From Vezdaea acicularis (lineage: Eukaryota), in assembly GCA_026025075.1 (NCBI GenBank), contig JAPEUI010000025.1, positions 62,001-126,000 on the forward strand: DNA of 64,000 nucleotides, given 5' to 3'. Shown here piece by piece: positions 10,736 to 63,620 of the stretch (position 1 is the stretch's first letter; each line of letters begins with the position of its first letter). Made by a program: the position numbers and the translations under genes. The notes under the pieces were generated by a model. The model searched no databases and was not told where the DNA came from. It was given only the letters and a program-made list of their open reading frames with translations.

Positions 10736-11309
10736 TCTAAATGCAATGAACGGTTCACTCCCTGTCGATCAAGAGGTCGCGTTGACGAGATTCTGACGGT
10801 TGCAGAAGTTATACGACGGGCCGCTTAGGAACACAAGTTTTGGCATGATAAGGAACGCTCCACTTTCGCGCAATAAACGCCTCCGTCTGTTTGGAACAAA
10901 TCAAAGGCAGAATTTATTTCTTAATATCTTCATTCCTACAATACGAAGTGCGACAGGATCATTAATGTTTTGGGCTGACTAGATTAGATTACTTTTAGTG
11001 AATATCAACCGCTTAACGTATCTAAGATGAAATCCTGTTCCTCTCACGTCCTAATACAAGTTAAGATATGAGTAATTATTTGCTGGTCATGCCAAAACTT
11101 AGATTTCTGATGATTTCTCATCGTATGCTCTAAAATTTATATACTCAGAGTACCTCTCAAGGGTTTAGGGTGAGCAAAACATAAGACCCTAGCTCACTAG
11201 TAGTTGGGAGCATGTGAATTTTTTTATGCTTGCTCAATGATTATCTCCAATGAACCTTGTAGTCATGGGTCGAGCATCAGCGATTCGTGAAAACACCGAA
11301 AAGGAAGAG

Positions 11310-33000: not shown

Positions 33001-33788
33001 CAAGCCACCACCGCAATCGTTTCCCGTCTTTGTCTCTTCTACTCCCCCACCTCAACTCTTTTGTCCCGAAGCGAGCCTTTCTGAGCATCGTGGTCGCTGT
33101 TTTCCCCTCACATCGATCAATGGATTCAGTGTCGGCCTGATCTGATAAAGGCGCAGGCGGCGATACCTGAGGGTTCCTAAGGGACTGGCAGGGAACAACC
33201 TTACACAGGCTAAGCTTTACGTGACGATCTCTCGCCGAGAACTCGTGTCTCTCGAGTTTGGATCGGAAGGAAAACGCTGCTGCCCGCATGCCCGCCGACC
33301 CCGCTTATGCCAATCAGCATAAGCCATCCTCTATCTCATGCATGCACGCATGTCCGTTTGTGGCACAAATTGTCAGCGCCAAGTCCGCCCCGAGGGCCGT
33401 CGTGCTGGTCAAAAGCCCGAATTCTTGCTCTATGAGCGCACCGAAGCGCCGGAGACCGTGCGGAGGTGACTTGCAGAAGAAAGAGGGCCGAGTAATTGAT
33501 CTGCTCTGACGACCGATCATCTTCAGCCTTGTAGAGAGGATCGTCGACAGTCGAACTCTTCCATCGCTCCAACCGAGATATTCTGGGGAGGACCCTCACG
33601 AACTCGGCCTCAACTTTTAGAATTTATTATTGAGAACCAGTGCATGTCGACTCGAAGCGCGAGAACACCCCCGTGCGTCGGCCGCAGAAACGGCCTGGGG
33701 GGACGGAGTGGAAGTCATCCTTGGCCTTCCGGAGAGTCCGCTTTCGTCGAAATACCAAACTCTTCCTAGGATCTGATTTATATCCAAC

Positions 33789-36022
33789 ATGTTTTCTACG
33801 TTGTTAAAGACCGCTCTATGGGCTATCGCTTGTAGTCATCCTATTTACGCTTGGGGAGACCTACTCTCTTCCCGAGATGTCATTCCCGCTGCGATTTCTA
33901 TTCCCCCTGCTCAAGAATGGTACTATCTCTCTTTCTAGAATCTATATCCTAGTGTCGCAGCAGGCGCCAAGAGTCTTTAAACATCTCGACCAGTACATGA
34001 TGGTCCCATCGGATCTTTATCTGTATGGAAATCTTGTAGTGCCCTGTGTATCTAGAGTCCGATGCCGCAGGTGGCTCGACGGATACTCTATACGTAGGGC
34101 TGAGGCACTCGCCCTACGAAAGGGTGTCCTCCGCGATGACTGGTCGAGGCGTCTGGAGACTTTGGCTCAGCTTTGCGACCAATTTACAGATGGCTGACTT
34201 TCAGATAGGGATGGCGACGATGGTTCTTGGTCAACCTTCCCAGTACAAGTCGGTACTCCGCCACAGGATCTCCGAGTTCTCCCCTCCACTTATAGTGTCG
34301 AGACATGGGTGATCGTACCTGAAGGCTGCCCACCTAGTTATCTTCCAGACTGCGTAGGAGCTCGGGGGGGTACTTTCTCAATTAACCAGTCGACAACCTG
34401 GAGAGATCACGCCGGTCCTTATTTTAGTCTTCTGGAGGAGAATCTTGGCTACGTTGGAAACGGACACTATGGGTACGACACTATCGCTCTAGGAAGTCGA
34501 GGTGGCAATGGTCCATCGTTTACCCATCAGATCGTAGGAGGTATATTAACGGCAGATTTCTTTGTCGGTGTGTTTGGCCTCAGCCCAAGACCGGATAACT
34601 TTAGTGGCTCTCCCGACGCGCAGCCAAGTTTTGTCCAAAATCTGAGGGCAAACAATTTAATCCCATCCACGTCGTGGGGTTATACGGCGGGAGCTCCTTA
34701 TAGTACGTTCCTGTATTTTAGTCGAAGGTGTCCGATCTAACAATATGCAGGACTAAAGAAAGTCCCTGGGAGCTTGACTCTTGGCGGCTATGATGACTCG
34801 CGATTCACGTCAAACGACTTTTCTTTCACTTTTGATAACAACAACGAGAAAGACCTTACCGTTGGAATTCAAGACATCACAACGGTCGGTACTAAAGGCG
34901 GCCAAAAGTCACTCCTTCCCAGTGGGATTCTCGCGCTGATCGATTCTACTGTCTCCCATATTTGGCTGCCCACACCAGCATGCAAAAGGTTTGAAGATGA
35001 ATTTGGATTGGTGTACGATTCAACCACAGAGCTCTATCTGGTAAACGACACTCTACACGAGTCGCTGTTGAGCAGAAACCCCAATATCACTTTTCAACTA
35101 GGAAACAGCATCAGTGGTCCTTCAATAGAGATAACTCTGCCTTACGCGGCTTTCGACCTTCAGGGTACCTATCCGTTTGTGGCGAATACCACTAATTACT
35201 TCCCACTGCGGCGGGCTGCCAACGATTCACAATATGTTATTGGCCGAACTTTCTTGCAAGAAGCGTAAGTCTAAGTACTAGATCCGTTCTTTGGTGACGC
35301 TTTTATACTTCAATACTTCGGGTGATTATGAAAGACAGGTTGCTAATGTTTGATTCAGCTATCTGATTGTTGATTGGGATCGTCGTAATTTTTCAATCTC
35401 GCAATGTATATTCGACCAGAATGCAAAGCAGCATATCGTCTCCATCCTTGCACCAGGCGAACAAAACTCTACTGCGAGCAATGCTTCGCCACCACTGGCA
35501 AAGAAGTCTTCAAATGCAGGAGCGATTGCTGGAGGAGTAGTCGGCGGACTCGCCGCAATAGCCATTATTGCACTAATCATATTTTGGAGGAGGCGGCGCC
35601 AACGCAACGCCGAAGACAAGGCAGAGAGCCAAGGGGCTGACGGGGAGACAACAACACCTGAGGGAAGTGCAGAGACGGCGTACAATCTCAACAGCACAGA
35701 ACCACACAAGCCTGGAATGGCTTCTGTTAATACGACTGGAACGACTATAAGAGCGGACTCGACTCGATCAAGACCAAAGTCGCAACTGAGCCAAGTACAC
35801 GAATTGGAAGCGGAAGAACGGCAACGACATGAGCTCCCATCCCCTGTGCCGGAGGTCGAAGGTTCACCAGGTGAGCCTTCTATCAGGACCATGTCTCCGA
35901 GAAGCCTATCGCTTGCAAGTGGAAGTATGTCACCCGGGAACATGTCACCGTCACAAATGTCCCCGGGCTCACCCGGTAGTGGATCGCATCCGTTGGACGG
36001 CTACTTTTTCCGAAGAACTTAG
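33789..36022 (+). CDS. Single-pass membrane A1 (pepsin-fold) aspartic-peptidase-like protein, probably catalytically degenerate, 4 exons
   Basis: Signal peptide, then W|DGDDGSWSTFPVQVGTPPQ, GVFGL, SLTLGGYD, LIDST and IGRTFLQEAYLIVDW. TM segment GAIAGGVVGGLAAIAIIALIIFWRRRR is followed by a cytosolic tail. Confidence 0.9.
33954..34179 (+). other. Y-shaped fold-back element inside 289-nt intron 1 (33920-34208)
   Basis: Arms 33954-33998 and 34136-34179 pair, including perfect ctcgaccagt/actggtcgag. They enclose hairpins 34007-34064 and 34081-34129. Confidence 0.75.
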
Positions 36023-55855: not shown

Positions 55856-56122
55856 TAAAGGGGTGCAAATTCTCGGCTCTTGTGTACAGGACGGGATCAA
55901 ACGGGGGGCTACTGAGCCCAAAAATGGTTTTATACTGCTTATATTGGCAGAGATAGACTATGTAAGAAAAACGTAGTCGTACCCGCTGCATGGTCTTATT
56001 GCACTCGAGTCATGTCAACGAATGCGGATAATCGCGGGCTGGCCGGCCCATAAGTAGCCCCCCCCCCCCTATTGTCATTTCTCCAATCTCTGTTGCAGTC
56101 ATTCCCAGCATTATCAAGACAT

Positions 56123-57162
56123 CTAGATCTTAGCCTCCTTCTCTCTCCTTAAAGTATGCCGGCTCACCTCCTCGCCCCTTTCCCTCTCTCCAGCTAGCTC
56201 CCCTTCCTTTATCAGCCTCTCGATCAAGTCCTCGTCTCCAAGCTTTGCATTGTGCTCAAACTCCGGCTCCTCACCGTAGGCGATACGCGCTGCATCAACT
56301 AGGATTCTAGCCGTCATACCCCACACCCTATACCTCGTGATCAAGCCCGCCTCTTCTGCTCTGAGAAGCTCCTCCTCGGACCTGTCGTGTGAATATGTGT
56401 GCATCTTGGGCTTCGGACGTACGACCTTCTGTCCTGCTATAGGCACATAGAAGTTATGCATCCGCCACGAAGATTCGTGCCAAGACATCCACTGGCCCTG
56501 ATACCACTCTTCGTCTCCTTCGCCTCCGTCCGCCGCCTCTCCAGTCTCTCTCTCCACCCCACGTTTCTTGAGGAAACCCCTTAATGGAGCTGTGAAGACC
56601 GCAGAGACTTCCGGAGCGCTCAACCTTGGTAACAGGACCTCATCTGCCGTTTCTGTGGGGTGTGTTGTAGAGAGATACGCAACGCAGGGGCGGACTCCGA
56701 GAGAGGTCTTTGCGAGATTGAGGGGCAGCTCGCAGAGATGATTGATGGTGAAGGTAGGGGGAAGAGCGCGAGGGTTGAGGGGAAGACCTATCTCTTCAAA
56801 CGCTTCTCTTCGGGCTGTGGAAAATGTGGACTCTTCCAAGGTATCCGCTTTTCCACCCGGAAGGGCAACTTGCCCCGCATCTGCCCCGCGTAAGCTACGA
56901 AGGGACCACAATTGGAGTGGGGAGACGTGCAGGATCGCAATGTATTTGCGCGCAAGGTCAGAACGACGCGCAGATCCCCTTTGCGGTCTGCGAAGAGCAG
57001 TATCAAGACTGCTGCGCGCCGCGAGAGGGGCAGGTTTGCGTATACAGTGCGCGGGGGGACATAGGAGCTGAGACGTGCTATCGCAGCCTATACGTTGTTA
57101 GAGTGTAGTCTAAGTATGTGAGGAAGGTACTTTACCGCTGAAACAGCAGATAATGGTGCCAT
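56123..57162 (-). CDS. PCD1: Peroxisomal CoA diphosphatase (Nudix, NUDT7-like), 3 exons
   Basis: RRAAVLILLFADRKGDLRVVLT, ALPGGKAD...ARREAFEEIGL (Nudix box), RVWGMTARIL and PTS1-like C-terminus AKI*. Confidence 0.93.
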
Positions 57163-57853
57163 GATTGCGCCCGCGCCATTGGCAGCACTTGAGAATATCA
57201 AAAGGCTGTATCCAATGAGCTGTAAATTGTTTGAAGCAAGGCGTATCAACTGACAGCACCGGCCGAGTTACAGTAGCCGAAGGCTTGTCCGAACGGACGT
57301 CATGCAGCCTCCTTTTGCAGCGTCGACAATTCCAATGGAACGGCGGTGGAACGCGGTCATTTCCATCTGTTCTGCATTCACAACGGATTTATCCGTCGTA
57401 CATGCTCTAGCTTTAAAGATCCATGGTTGACAATCTCGTTTACGCCAGCTCAACATACAGAGCCACGAGACAGGGTGAAATCCTGCGACATGGTATTCGA
57501 ATCCTCATGCAGGGCCCTTCCACAGCTGGCATCACTTCCAGAAGATTGCTCTTTCCAGAGTCTGGACTAAACCCATTCGATTAGTCCTCGACAGCAGACA
57601 TTGGTCTTTCGTCCAATCTAGCCTCAGATTTCATTTTGTCCTTGTCCTCAACTCGCGTTGTCATCGCGTGGTCTTTCTCTTTCCAGTTTCTTTGTGCTAT
57701 TTGAGACTCGTCCATAGAGTCACAAGCCACAAAGATGGCAACATTCATGGACCCCAGATATCAGGATCCATGGCTTTCTCTCCTTCTTAAACCCGTCGCG
57801 TAGTGTTTCCTCTCCGCGGTAAGTTACAGAATCCTTCAATCTCGTCTGAGATC

Positions 57854-59170
57854 ATGGCGCGTCCACCGAATCCACCGAGTACTGAGGAACTAGCACGAAT
57901 GTATCAGGAGATTTCCAGTCCATCATCGATGACAGACTTCGAGGAAACCAATGCCGCTTTCGACTCTTTCCATACTCCGGCTTCGCTCCTTGGCTATATT
58001 AACAAACCTCTTCCACCTATCCCTGATCCAAAGGAGTCAAAGCCGAAGGTGAGCAGAGGGAGACACAGTGGGCCCAAGCTCTCGGACTCGGACCCGGACC
58101 CGCCCCTGCCAGCTGTGGAACAACTAGCGCCAAGCTTTTACTTGCAACCCACAACATACAGCAACTCGAGTCTCGCCGTGAATGGTCTTGAGCGACCCTA
58201 CCAGCTCGCGGATCCGTCCAAGCCAAAGTCCTCAGAAACCAGTCCACGAAGCACCCAGAGTGCCAAAGAGCTCTTATATCGAGATCTAGGCTCCCACCGA
58301 GCAAACACGGATGAGCGGCGCGTCCTCACGCTGAAAGACATGATAGACGTGGAAGAGCAGGAGCAGCTCGATGCAACCGACAGACAGCGACAAGAACAAC
58401 ATATGGCGCCAGCCCCACATCATCCACAACCAAACTCCTCGCCACTGCCTGAACAGATAAGCCCCCTCCCCTCGCGCGCCTACTCATCCAGCCACTCCCC
58501 CGAGTCCTCCTCAGACTACCAAACCCAGCGCCTCATCCCTCCACCTCTCTCCATCTACAAATCTCCCATCCCGGACCGGCCCGTCTCACGCTTCTCTTTA
58601 AACACCACCTCCTCCTCCTCCTCCTATTCCAGCGATAACCCCCATCACCCTCGCAAAGCCAACCGCTCCTCCCTGATCGCCTACCTCCGCAAATCCGCCT
58701 CCTCGTCCAAGACCTCGAAAGGCAAAGGCAAGCGCAAAAGCGCTCAGTCGTCCTCGTCGCCGACGAACGAGCACTTTCCCCCGCCCCAGCAGAAGAAGAA
58801 GGAGACGAAGACGTTTGTGCACCTCCAACAAACTATAGCAGGGAAATTCCGATACCCATACTTTTCATCCGTCCGCCCTCCTCCTCCTCCACCTCCTCAT
58901 CCCCCTATGACAACCGACAACAACCCCAATCCTCCCCACCCCCGCCATACTTCCGCACCCGCAACACCCTCCACACACCCCCCTCCTCCCCTATCCACCC
59001 GCCTCAACCAACGCTTCACAGACGGCACCATCCGCCTCCGCGGCGCCATAGCGGATAATCTCAGATTACCGAGGCCTCCGTACGCGCGGCGCGAAGCGCT
59101 GAAGCGTGGGATCGTCCGCGTGGGCGAGCCGCAGGAGTATGTGGACGAGAGGGAGGGGACGTGGGTTTGA
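57854..59170 (+). CDS. Hypothetical Pro/Ser-rich disordered protein
   Basis: Long open frame (over 430 codons) with an NKPLPPIP motif and C-terminal RREALKRGIVRVG. The start is uncertain. Confidence 0.7.
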   Translation: MARPPNPPSTEELARMYQEISSPSSMTDFEETNAAFDSFHTPASLLGYINKPLPPIPDPKESKPKVSRGRHSGPKLSDSDPDPPLPAVEQLAPSFYLQPTTYSNSSLAVNGLERPYQLADPSKPKSSETSPRSTQSAKELLYRDLGSHRANTDERRVLTLKDMIDVEEQEQLDATDRQRQEQHMAPAPHHPQPNSSPLPEQISPLPSRAYSSSHSPESSSDYQTQRLIPPPLSIYKSPIPDRPVSRFSLNTTSSSSSYSSDNPHHPRKANRSSLIAYLRKSASSSKTSKGKGKRKSAQSSSSPTNEHFPPPQQKKKETKTFVHLQQTIAGKFRYPYFSSVRPPPPPPPHPPMTTDNNPNPPHPRHTSAPATPSTHPPPPLSTRLNQRFTDGTIRLRGAIADNLRLPRPPYARREALKRGIVRVGEPQEYVDEREGTWV

Positions 59171-60160
59171 TGGTTAGTGAACCCGGGGGGGGATATCCAA
59201 AAGGGGAAATGAGTAATAGGGTACTGATTTGGCTTAGGGGAGACGGGAGGTTGGAACTCCTCCCTCCCTGAGAAACGTTAAGGGGAGGAGCTTTCAGCTT
59301 TTCGGCCGTTTATTGGAGACTTTGGAGACTTTGGGGGCGGGAGAGGACTGCATCGTATCCAGACCCTGTATCTATCTACTGTATATACAAATGATCAAGA
59401 ACAGCGAACAGCGAAACTTTGATGCAAGAACCCGCGGGGATGTTGTGAGGTTTGAGAGAAGTATGGGGTTTGGGGTTTGGGGGTTTTATGGATGGTTCTC
59501 TCGTTCTAGTTTTACTCCCGTGTCCGCTGCCGTTCCCTATCGTTCCCTGCTCTGCTCTGTCCAGCGCAGAAAGGGGAAACCCAAAGAAACCCAGGGAAAC
59601 CCGGGAAGTCAAGGAGTTGGAGAACCCAAAGAAGAAGAAGAAGGACAAACCTCCCCCCTCTCCCCAAAATCAATCCCAAACGACCTCACGCGCGCGCGAG
59701 AGCGAGAGCGATGAATAGCCAAAACCCAACCTCCTGCCTAGAGCCACAGGGAGGGAGGGAGGAGGAGACGATAGTGGGGTTGGTTGGGAATATTGAAGAG
59801 GTGGTATGAGATGTAAGGAGTTGAAGGGGTGCAGAAAGGCAGATAGGCAGGCAGGCAGGTAGGGAGATAGGCAGGGAGCGAGGGAGGCAGATAAGGATCC
59901 GGCTTTGAAAAGCTGCTAATACATGATATTCCCACACGCTCCCATGTCTCTCTCTCTCTGCTTCGCTCTCTCGTCCTCTCTGTGCGCTTCGCTCCAAGAA
60001 AAGCCCAAGAAAAAAACACCCCCCAAAAAAACGAACAGAGACCAAAAAAATGAAATAAAATAAAACTCCGCTTCACACACACCCTCCCCCCTCGTTATCC
60101 CCCCCTAGGCACCCTTCCAAGGACCCTCCTTTCAATCGAGCCTCCTTCCAGTCGAGCACC

Positions 60161-61863
60161 TCACCCCCTAACCCTCCCCGTGGCGGCATACTCCGCCGCG
60201 CGGACACTCCTGCGGTGCTCCCTCTCCATCTCGCGAATCTCCTCCGGCGTCGGCGCCGGCGCGCCCATGACCGTCAGATCGACACTACTCCTTGCACTAC
60301 CGCGAGCACTTCCCCGGCCATCGCCCGAGCCAGCAGCGGTAGGGTCGGGAAGGTCGTGTTGGCGGCGGAAGCGGGTTGGTATAAGCGCTGTGCGGAAGGG
60401 GGAGGTGAAGGGACGGAGTTGGGAGGGGTCAGGTTGGGTGGTGGATGGAGTGGTGGTAGAGGAGGGGTCGGAGGTGGGTTCGGTGGTGGTGGTGCTGCCG
60501 CGGCCGCGGCCGATGAAGGGGGGACGCCACCAATTCCCGCCGCGCTGGGGGCCTGGCTGGTCGGTCCCTGCTAGGTGCGGGGCGGAGTCGTCGAGGGCGG
60601 TCTGGCGGTCGCGGCGGTTGAGGGTGGGGAAGCCGTAGCGGTCGTGTGGTGGGTCGTTGTGGGCGGCGTGGTGGTCGCGGAAGGGGTTTCCGCCGCGTGC
60701 ACCCATCCAGGCGCTGCGCGGGGCGGAGGCGAGGGGGTGCGAGGGGAGACGGCCGTTGGCGGAGGTTGCACGACGGCGGGAGGAGGAGCCGCTGCCATCG
60801 TCAGGGCCGGTGGGGGGAGAGTCTCCGTTGCTGCCTTCGGGGCGGGGCTTGGGGACGTAGTAGTCTGCTTTGCAGAGGGGGCAGCAGGCGCGCCGGCTGG
60901 TGAGCCAGGGGTCGAGGCAGGAGGCGTGGAACGCGTGACCGCAGGTGAGCCCGCGGATGTCGTCGTTGTCTTCGAGCGTGTCGAGGCAGATGGCGCAGGT
61001 GTCGCCGGGGTTGGTGAGGAGTTCGGGAGGCACGGCCGAGTGGATGTGGTCGTCTTCGAGCTCTTCTTCGTCTTCGGCGGCGGTGGTCGTCCGCGTTAGG
61101 GTGGTCTCGGTCGGTGCGAGTGTAGTGTGGCCTTTCTCGACAAGGGAGGCGTCGGAGAAGCGGTTGTCTTTGGTGTCAGAGGATGGGACGTCGATGGATG
61201 TCTTGGATATGGGGGCAGGTGTGATGGACGCGGGCGACTCTGCGGTGGATGAAGAGTCGGCGATATGAGGTGTGCGCGGTTGATCGCTCTCGCTCTTTCG
61301 ACGCTCGGTCGATGGCTCGACGACACCTTCCTCCTCTTTCAAGCTGGCCGCTCTACTCGACGCAATGCCACCGGCTGCCGGAAGGCCCTCTCGCTCTCGA
61401 CTCAACCGCCATGCCTTGTATTTCGTCAGCGGGAAGCGCGTGTTAACGTCTTCCAGACTCATCAACTTCTTCTCTCTTCTTCGTCGATGCGGTCGAGGCA
61501 TCGTGTTCATGTCAATCTCGCCCTCTGCACTCTCTCTCGCCGCTCTGTTTCTCTGATTATATCGGAAGCAGTATTTGACGCCGACAATGATCCTGGAAGA
61601 AGAGAGATGTCAGTATTTATCGTGCGGAAAATCTCTTCCAACACGGGAGAGGCAGATCTCGTATGAATCCTGATGATCCTCCTTTAGCCGGTGAATAGCC
61701 GAATTGTGACATACCATAAGTTCGTAAAGACAACGCCAAACCCCAGCGCGACGAAGAACAATAACGGTGAATTGGTCGGCCCATTGCTACCTTGGCCGGC
61801 GGTGGTCGTCGCTCCTGGGGGTCCCCCCGAGGTCGTTGACGGTATCGCCGATACAGACGTCAT
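60161..61863 (-). CDS. Membrane-anchored RING-H2 E3 ubiquitin ligase, 2 exons
   Basis: TM segment SPLLFFVALGFGVVFTNLW|IIVGVKYCFRY (intron 61714-61593) and RING-H2 CAICLD...LTCGHAFHASCLDPWL...CPLC. Confidence 0.93.
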
Positions 61864-61949
61864 GTCGGGCAGTCCAGTTGAAGTGGTCGGTGGTCCGCCC
61901 AGATTGTAGAAATTCGACCTGATCTCCAGGCTTCGTCTTTCCTCCAATC

Positions 61950-62425
61950 TCACCACCTCCTCGATGACATTCTCGGTGTTGAAAGACGTGATGGCGGGTC
62001 GAGCAGCGAGGCCAGAGCGGAGACTGGTCGTGCTCACGCTTAGCCGGGAGAAGCGATGCGCTGATTACAGGTCTCACGCCCCGTCGTGGACCCTAAACAT
62101 TCGAGACTGGCGAGTCAATTTTTCGACGCCGTCGAGCCTAGAGCATTAGAGAGATGGATGAAGTCGCGAAACGAATGTTTGGTCGATATCGCGAGGGGGG
62201 CCCGCTCCGGTGGTGGCGAGGTTGGTGAAATGGTGATGTCGGAGTGGCCGGGCTAGGGGCAATCAAGCGTTTTTGTCACGCCTCGAGCGAGCAGATTAGT
62301 TCATTGGAACACGACGACCAGTGTGTGTCCCGACCCGATGCGACTCGATTCGCAATCAACCTGCGTTCGTCTGCACCGGCGATGGGCAGAGAGATGGTTA
62401 AGGTAGAGATGAAAGACTATTTCAT
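61950..62425 (-). promoter_or_regulatory. Cluster of five short uORFs in the putative RING-H2 mRNA leader
   Basis: ATG AAA TAG (62425-62417), ATG AAC TAA (62304-62296), ATG CTC TAG (62146-62138), MFRVHDGA* (62100-62074) and MSSRRW* (61970-61950). Confidence 0.55.
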
Positions 62426-63620
62426 GGGGTATCTCCAGTACAAGAACGGGGAAGTTTCCGTCCTTCGCGAGAGGAGGCCGGGAAGGAGAATATGTGGGCG
62501 AGCGAGCAGGTCGCGATCGCTTTGTGTGGGGCCGCAGTGAGGGAAAGAGTCTCGGTTGGGAGGGGGAGGCTGCCAGTGGCGACCAACAGCCTCGGGCGGG
62601 GGAAACACCGGTGATCAGAAGAGTGTCTCGTGCCTCAGTCATTACAGTTATGCGATAAGTTAAGTCCGGGGCGACGCATTCTTGCCTTAGCCGCATCGCA
62701 GTCCCATGAACGCAGTTTGCAGCTCGTTCTGATGTCGCTGGATATACACGTGATGCATGTACTGTACTTCTCTGCATGCAAATACAACACAAAGGCACGC
62801 ACGGCCAACGGGCATCCCATAGGCGCCGCGACGACGAGGTAAGAATAGATATGGGAAGCTGAAGCTGGAGCAAAAAGGCCGCGCACGATGGAACTCGCCG
62901 TCGAATTCCAATTCGCCGTGATGGCCTCTTCGCGCGAGACAGCCGCATGGATAGATGTCAGCTCCAGCATACGAACACAACACGAACGCCGCCATGGCCG
63001 CTGTTCCTCTCGCGCGCCCAGATCAAAGAGGTTCGTTCGCCGGCCATGCGTCCGCCCAGTCCAGCACAGCCAAAGCTTGATTTCGATCGCAGGGATACGC
63101 TCCTGGATCCGCCCAGTGTCGTGGAGCGACCGCCATTGGTCGAGACGCGCCCCGTTATTTGTGAAGCGGCGTGGGAGCAGCAGAAACTCGTCATCTGTTT
63201 GTGGCCGGCGTACGGAGAGGATATATCGCTCACCGGTGCGAAAGGACGGCGTGTTGTGATTCGCGCCCGAATGACGAGCTGATGGCGGAGAAGCTGCCCT
63301 TCCGCCTCTCTGCCCTCCTCCCTTCGCTGCGTTCTTTGTTCGTTCTTCCCGTGCCGCCCTAACCCGCGCTTCCCCCTCGTCCCACACCACCCCCTCGGTC
63401 TGCCCAGTCCGTGCGACACCGCAGTCGATCTATCTTGGATGCATTGCCCTCTTCGGCCGTCCATGACCACACCATCCCAATCTAGTCCGTCCGGCCTCTG
63501 CGCCATCCGTGTCCTCATCCTGCATCCCCATATCGGACGACTTCGCATCCGCCAGCACGCGTGTGACGAACGACAGATACAGAAATCAACGGGCTATTAG
63601 GGCAGCGCCTCTAGCGGATC

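Follow-up and report, generated by a model that had tools for sequence, protein, structure and literature searches.

A probable palindromic DNA insert in a long, strongly folded, old intron of a pepsin-like gene of Vezdaea acicularis

How does a fungus with introns of about 50-100 nt come to carry one of 289 nt that folds back on itself along most of its length? The question is raised by intron 1 of a pepsin-like (A1) protease gene in a stretch of 64,000 nt from Vezdaea acicularis (GenBank assembly GCA_026025075.1, contig JAPEUI010000025.1, positions 62,001-126,000, forward strand), which we analysed as a whole and call the window; positions are counted from its first nucleotide. A sequence-only reading of the window had pointed out this intron and suggested three origins for it: an introner-like mobile intron, a decayed miniature inverted-repeat transposable element (MITE) tolerated because it folds out of the way, or a host for a non-coding RNA (ncRNA) or for a precursor of microRNA-like small RNA (milRNA). 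Our results suggest that the intron itself is old and that it probably holds a fairly young palindromic DNA insert, either MITE-like or made during repair, which is probably tolerated because it folds.

The bounds of the intron were predicted from the reading frame and from homologous genes. A Trp codon (TG|G) is interrupted by an intron with GT at 33920 and AG at 34207-34208, and the flanking exons join as ...PPAQEW|DGDDGSWSTF. This junction agrees with PPSQ[YS]W|DGDDG in homologues, which bears out the 289-nt intron at 33920-34208 delimited in the sequence-only reading. The exon-2 protein was scanned against metagenome contigs, and 21 homologous loci with 34-52% identity were obtained. In ten of them (L001-L007, L009, L019, and L020), an intron interrupts the same Trp codon in the same phase, with lengths of 57, 82, 107, 54, and 49 nt for five distinct sequence groups. 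The remaining 11 loci are intron-less here, e.g., PSQKF-DGDDG. An extra intron is found in L019:331-905 and L020:231-807, within the equivalent of window exon 2, and is absent from the window and the other loci.

A maximum likelihood (ML) tree of 14 distinct complete rows placed the intron-bearing genes, including that of the window, on one side of a branch with a support of 91/88. This tree did not contain L019 and L020, whose internal intron brings stops into the match region. When both were included after trimming to 123 and 131 residues, the resulting ML tree of 16 distinct rows again had the intron-bearing rows (seven, including the window) on one side of a branch, supported at 97/92. The intron label changes once on the 16-row tree, compared with a mean of 5.5 changes for shuffled labels, and none of 500 shuffles was as low. 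The shared codon and phase, together with the tree in which intron-bearing genes occupy one side of a branch, indicate that the position of intron 1 is ancestral to the pepsin-like subfamily and was not gained in the window lineage.

The length and folding of intron 1 are not those of the introns with which it can be compared. It measures 289 nt against 48-107 nt, and its folding z score is -5.76 against -0.75 to +0.96 for seven ordinary introns (six homologous introns and window intron 2), none of which is below -1. Within intron 1, symmetry is confined to 33954-34179, close to the approximately 225 nt previously described as self-complementary. This palindrome has a GC content of 54%, whereas the two flanks, 34 and 29 nt long, are at 35% GC. 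The summed flank length of 63 nt is the size of the homologous introns and fits the effective intron of about 60 nt that had been expected after collapse of the fold. Extension of the palindrome to the intron ends was rejected, as the flanks are no more complementary to each other than expected by chance (303 of 500 shuffles reached their score). We also rejected an insert built of repeated subunits, although AGAGTC...CTCGAC occurs twice, as alignments of the arms with the interior in either orientation were equalled or exceeded by 276-485 of 500 shuffles. The inner left and inner right parts, aligned in inverted orientation, gave a marginal result, with 34 of 500 shuffles scoring as well.

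On the + strand, the minimum free energy (MFE) of intron 1 is -114.4 kcal/mol, compared with -87.0 +/- 4.8 kcal/mol for dinucleotide shuffles, none of which was as stable (0 of 200), and 206 of the 289 positions are paired. The structure has passed the comparison with shuffled sequences that the sequence-only reading had named as able to refute it. The - strand also folds strongly, at -103.3 kcal/mol with a z score of -4.71 (0 of 200 shuffles as stable), and strong folding of both strands is the pattern expected of a DNA palindrome. When the whole window was scanned in 240-nt windows with a step of 40 nt and correction for GC content, 33961-34200 was the top + strand segment (z -3.23). The left arm of the outer stem aligns with the reverse complement of 34131-34179 at 79% identity (37/47), the remainder being 10 mismatches and 5 gap positions, and the pair probabilities (P) of its component helices are 0.94 for gtcgca/tgcgac, 0.97 for agtct/agact, and 1.00 for ctcgaccagt/actggtcgag.

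Several details of the fold as first drawn were recovered and others were not. The outer stem and hairpin B are predicted as they had been described (Table 1). The two strands of the proposed hairpin A (catcgga at 34007 and tccgatg at 34058) are complementary, but their pairing has an ensemble probability of about 0, and forcing it costs 8.6 kcal/mol. Two small hairpins are predicted in this region instead, and the predicted shape of the insert RNA is a long stem with a multi-branched head and a four-way junction rather than a Y. Most substitutions between the arms had been thought compatible with G-U pairing on the pre-mRNA strand; among the 34 arm mismatches, only 9 are G-U compatible on the + strand and 4 on the - strand, while 21 are transversions, and the bias among the transitions (9 vs 4) is not significant. 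The + strand fold is 11 kcal/mol better than the - strand fold and contains 14 G-U pairs vs 8. The palindrome does exclude the splice signals, as had been stated, but the 3' splice site is not clearly free: in the fold of the whole intron, CUAUCU at 33923-28 near one end pairs with AGAUAG at 34203-08 at the other (P 0.84), and the probability that the 3' TAG is unpaired is only 0.15. A branch-point-like CTGAC is located at 34194-34198, and we take it, with its A at 34197, to be the branch point by its fit to the fungal consensus CTRAC. [quoted passage not shown]

A search with Rfam covariance models, which include those of small nucleolar RNAs (snoRNAs), riboswitches, ribozymes, and signal recognition particle (SRP) RNA, gave no match at E values up to 10 in 33700-34400 and none at the gathering score in the whole window, consistent with the earlier failure to match the intron to SRP, TPP riboswitch, hammerhead, or snoRNA motifs. 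Box C/D-like words can be found by eye (AUGAUGG at 33997; CUGA at 34100 and 34194), and a box C/D snoRNA reading of intron 1 was dropped because there is neither a terminal stem nor an Rfam match.

Table 1 Features of the host gene, of intron 1, and of the proposed palindromic insert within it
Feature	Position	Strand	Description
Host gene start	ATG 33789	+	From sequence and translation
Exon 1	33789..33919	+	ATG, signal-peptide-like N-terminus; last bases TG of split Trp codon
Intron 1 (predicted)	33920..34208	+	289 nt, GT..AG, phase 2
5' flank of intron 1	33920..33953	+	34 nt, AT-rich; donor GTACTA; TTTCTAGAAT at 33932-33941
Palindromic (foldback) insert	33954..34179	.	226 nt, 54% GC; alone -106.4 kcal/mol
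Outer stem, left arm	33954..34003	+	Pair probabilities 0.94-1.00
Central-left region ("hairpin A")	34004..34079	+	Two smaller hairpins predicted, 34006-34028 and 34034-34079
Hairpin B	34080..34130	+	9 + 8 bp stem, -29.8 kcal/mol alone, both parts P 0.99
Outer stem, right arm	34131..34179	+	Partner of left arm
3' flank of intron 1	34180..34208	+	29 nt; acceptor AG 34207-34208
Exon 2	34209..34702	+	First base G; N-terminal half of pepsin-like (A1) domain
Intron 2	34703..34750	+	48 nt, ordinary, unstructured, fold z -0.65
Exon 3 or most of it	34751..35262	+	Pepsin-like domain continued

A close relative allowed us to follow the fate of the palindrome. One contig of relative X5 (organism A) covers 33507-34700 with 60 differences and one 1-nt insertion over 1,194 nt, a divergence of about 5%. 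Intron 1 is kept in one piece in the contigs of X5 and of relative X6, and X6 has the same variants as X5 where it is covered. The 1-nt insertion is located in intron 1, which differs from that of X5 at 21 of 289 positions (7.3%). The palindrome alone differs at 18 of 226 (8.0%), a rate no lower than that of the non-coding upstream DNA (17 of 282, 6.0%). There are 2 differences in the 131 nt of exon 1, and pieces of X6 show about 15 in 380 nt of exon 2. Paired positions received 14 of the 21 intron substitutions, where 71% is expected, and on each strand six of the substitutions in X5 break a pair. The MFE of the X5 intron is -100.1 kcal/mol, whereas copies of the window intron with equally many random substitutions gave -98.3 +/- 7.6 kcal/mol, with 37.7% of 300 such sequences folding at least as well. 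The fold of X5 is thus within the range of random mutants, giving no sign of selection on structure or sequence, with the low power of a comparison between two lineages. The structural distance to the branch point in X5 is 55 nt.

As far as can be seen from these two lineages, the insert is decaying neutrally. The distance K between the arms, 0.28 (72 matches, 22 mismatches), is 3.7 times that between the window and X5 introns, 0.076. This ratio suggests that the palindrome, had it been perfect when it arose, would be a few times older than the split between the window fungus and X5. The palindrome would nevertheless be far younger than the intron position, which spans a protein divergence of roughly 50%.

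Copies of the insert were sought in the 64-kb window and, at a likeness of at least 80%, in the contigs of four sequencing runs, a search that older or more diverged copies would escape. In the window, blastn found the self-match only, and the next best hit was 17 nt long with an E value of 0.18. All ten contig pieces from the four runs are collinear with the locus, and none matches on the palindrome alone. The locus occurs in moss-metagenome runs, and smaller shares of its words are present in the organism A run and in two other runs. The insert appears to be single-copy within the data searched, and this result argues against a young multi-copy family.

The inverted-repeat search of the whole window returned one further pair of similar span, at 10835-11100 (266 nt). 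Its ends are 21 nt long, inverted, and 86% complementary (AAGTTTTGGCATGA.../...TCATGCCAAAACTT), while the interior is AT-rich and unstructured; the z score is -2.68, and the location seems to be intergenic. It could be a MITE-like element. We rejected it as an element of the same kind as the intron palindrome, because only its ends pair and its sequence is unrelated.

Where did the insert come from? It is possible, and we entertain it as a tentative alternative, that it is the relic of a non-autonomous DNA transposon (MITE or foldback element) whose family is extinct or too diverged to be detected. Such a relic would explain a sequence of this size without coding capacity (no Pfam match), with discrete boundaries, 50-nt terminal inverted arms that retain 79% identity, a GC content unlike that of the flanks, and neutral decay. 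Intronic MITEs and foldback elements are likewise short and non-coding, have inverted terminal arms, and fold back as RNA when transcribed within a gene; a discussion of MITE-derived hairpins of plants is found in PMC10004981. The insert differs from them in its palindromic interior: transposition through terminal repeats does not require an interior that is palindromic as well, as hairpin B is. Further points that do not fit are the target-site duplication (TSD), which was not seen by eye at 33953/33954 or 34179/34180 (a TSD of 2-4 nt could have been lost after this much decay), the absence of subterminal repeat units, for which the arm-versus-interior shuffles above speak, and the lack of any family member in the window or the contigs of the four runs. 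Of the three origins proposed earlier, a decayed MITE tolerated by folding out fits best, in view of the discrete, GC-richer palindrome between ordinary flanks, its neutral decay, and the reduction of the structural branch-point distance from 277 to about 53 nt, although the identity as a MITE is tentative. That the whole intron is the mobile unit, as a member or relic of the introner-like elements (ILEs) of Dothideomycetes or of the sister (stw)introns of Hypoxylaceae, we consider quite improbable. Fungal ILEs are described as having up to hundreds of near-identical copies, as a source of intron gains, and as bearing compensatory mutations (Collemare et al. 2013, PMC3609843, in a summary of van der Burgt et al. 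2012). Sister (stw)introns are characterized by terminal repeats of 45-55 nt that reach the intron ends, a WTTCTAGAAA palindrome, new intron positions occupied by dozens of similar copies, and gtgagt or ggtgagt donors (Fekete et al. 2021, PMC8469720). Intron 1 shares with ILEs, as summarised there, the features of a canonical spliceosomal intron that is much longer than its neighbours and has a very stable predicted structure (PMC3609843), so that length and folding of the ILE type are present. With sister (stw)introns it shares a symmetrical, hairpin-forming intron, no Rfam match, no TSD visible by eye, and one TTCTAGAA-type palindrome (PMC8469720), and the intron ends can pair, as noted above. 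The palindrome in question, TTTCTAGAAT at 33932-33941, agrees with WTTCTAGAAA at 9 of 10 positions on the + strand and exactly on the - strand, where it is the sole exact match in 64 kb. However, it belongs to the flank rather than to the arms, it is broken in X5 by 33938 G>A, and when up to one mismatch is allowed the window shows no enrichment of the motif (7 found vs 8.7 expected). The simple form of this explanation is refuted by the position of the intron, which is ancestral, common to 10 of 21 homologous loci, and confined to one side of a tree branch. Unlike an ILE as described, intron 1 is seen in one copy that decays neutrally (PMC3609843). Between its symmetrical part and the splice sites there are 34 and 29 nt, the window and the contigs of the four runs yielded no other copy, and its donor is gtacta, compared with the gtgagt or ggtgagt of the sister introns listed in the supplement table of PMC8469720. 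By their description, the lack of repeats reaching the ends, of multiple copies in the data searched, of a new position, and of such donors sets intron 1 apart from sister (stw)introns (PMC8469720).

The folded RNA could instead have a function of its own, as a milRNA-like small-RNA precursor, another intron-hosted ncRNA, or a selected splicing-regulatory structure. A very stable long stem with arms of about 50 nt would be a plausible Dicer substrate; it has been kept in two lineages, includes one compensatory pair change (34009/34025), and folds better on the + strand, with the larger number of G-U pairs. We nevertheless regard a function as unlikely, because Rfam models found no match either locally or window-wide, the palindrome diverges at least as fast as upstream non-coding DNA, the substitutions in X5 keep the fold no better than random ones, the G-U bias is not significant, and the homologous introns are short and unstructured. 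The intron-hosted ncRNA or milRNA precursor of the sequence-only reading gained no support from these data. The absence of paralogues combined with the absence of conservation had been named as grounds for ruling out both the mobile and the functional interpretation; our results on the two weaken both. Part of the intron might also be coding, as an alternative exon or an overlapping open reading frame (ORF). The exon-2 frame is open for 129 codons on the + strand (33808-34197), contains an ATG-started ORF at 33877-34197, and is open in X5 as well. This reading is hardly credible and was rejected: the frame has no Pfam match, does not continue that of exon 1, and ends at a TGA within the branch-point motif; of the 20 substitutions in it, 15 alter a residue, and the 20 are spread over the first, second, and third codon positions as 8, 7, and 5; and homologues join PPSQxW straight to DGDDG. 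An open frame of this length is unusual for DNA of 50% GC and is probably due to chance.

The arrangement of intron 1 is similar to that of stems known to bring splice signals together. In the yeast RPS17B (RP51B type) intron, a stem shortens the branch-point distance, and the shortening is correlated with splicing efficiency (Rogic et al. 2008, PMC2536676). Zipper stems are defined by three numeric limits, including a total linker of 42-85 nt and at least 20 nt from the stem end to the branch A (Rangan et al. 2025, PMC12350175). As in the stems described in these two sources, complementary segments follow the 5' splice site and precede the branch point of intron 1, and the distance is reduced from 277 to about 53 nt. 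The linker of intron 1 (34 + 17 = 51 nt) falls within the 42-85 nt range, the outer stem has a P of at least 0.94, and multi-way junctions protrude from the stem, as they do in zipper stems (PMC12350175). Two of the three limits thus accommodate intron 1. The other is a near miss, as the stem end at 34179 is only 17 nt from the presumed branch A at 34197, compared with at least 20 nt (PMC12350175). The stems described in these sources are from Saccharomyces introns probed in vivo, some with mutational proof (PMC2536676, PMC12350175), whereas the stem of intron 1 is a prediction, and its structure resembles a recent DNA palindrome rather than an evolved stem.

We propose a history for intron 1 in which an old, normally sized intron received a palindromic insert. 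About 63 nt of this intron would persist as the AT-rich flanks, which contain the donor, the branch point, and the acceptor. The GC-richer palindrome of roughly 226 nt (33954-34179) would have been gained in a recent ancestor shared by the window fungus and organism A, from a foldback or MITE-like element or by inverted duplication during DNA repair, two sources that the evidence does not separate. In the pre-mRNA, the insert would fold into a long stem with a multi-branched head and leave the splice signals at the normal spacing for a fungus with introns of about 50-100 nt, thereby escaping removal by selection. The intron is likely to be still spliceable in this short-intron fungus because the fold shortens the branch-point distance. 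The stem would then be an accidental "zipper stem" that is passively tolerated and not selected as RNA. A palindrome that has since been co-opted seems improbable to us; in that case the stem might now be needed for splicing as a newborn zipper stem, might be diced into small RNAs from the pre-mRNA of the membrane-anchored pepsin-like gene, or both.

Several observations weigh against this history or limit its reach. No empty-site orthologue was found, and we infer the insertion from composition, the limits of symmetry, and the sizes of homologous introns; splicing at 33919/34209 is itself predicted. The missing TSD, the sister-intron motif in the 5' flank, and the reach of the copy search belong here as well. 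One compensatory double change separates the window from X5 (34009 T>C with 34025 A>G), and the window copy folds 14.3 kcal/mol better than that of X5, a gap reached in 10% of 200 simulations. Given that the fold comparison comprises two lineages, there may be selection on the outer stem alone. The tree that supports an ancestral intron position is based on at most 164 residues, the window gene is on a long branch (0.6), and the rows nearest to it by path length are intron-less.

The host gene extends past exon 3 to about 36020. The exon 2 product matches PF00026 (eukaryotic aspartyl protease) with an E value of 3.2e-5 at profile positions 5-136 of 315, and the exon 3 product matches the same profile with an E value of 4.2e-6 at positions 151-297. 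Pepsin-like proteases usually have the first catalytic motif DTGS at the position (34270-34300) where, by eye, the window protein has PSTYS and the homologues have VSTNS. The second catalytic site, IDST at about 34930-34960, retains its Asp by eye. The C-terminal part of the protein, in the last exon, has a transmembrane-like segment in the translation and a Ser/Pro-rich tail. The pepsin-like subfamily to which the gene belongs may, judging from these motifs, be non-catalytic or atypical.

The 64-kb window as a whole looks like an ordinary region of a fungal chromosome, with a GC content of 50.6% and alpha-mannosidase, PhoD-like phosphatase, subtilase, and RING-finger genes. Many of the strongest-folding 240-nt windows on both strands are at about 56000-63000, where the GC content reaches 0.75 at 60481-60720, within a RING-finger gene region, and there is no Rfam match. 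This folding probably reflects compositional or low-complexity coding sequence.

The history of intron 1 carries a caution, as an intronic fold with a z score near -6 does not by itself point to an RNA gene or an introner. The account of a palindromic insert was reached here through three checks: the structures of homologous genes, a relative with 95% identity, and the composition of the insert compared with its flanks. The locus provides a natural example of how a short-intron fungus tolerates a four-fold expansion of an intron, and it may be the folding inserts that persist. It also illustrates a way in which zipper-like stems could originate accidentally. If the palindrome has been co-opted, it would be a datable case of a structured intronic RNA that began as a DNA palindrome in a short-intron fungus. 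If the stem proved to be necessary for splicing, palindromes derived from transposons or from repair would be linked to the origin of structural splicing enhancers.

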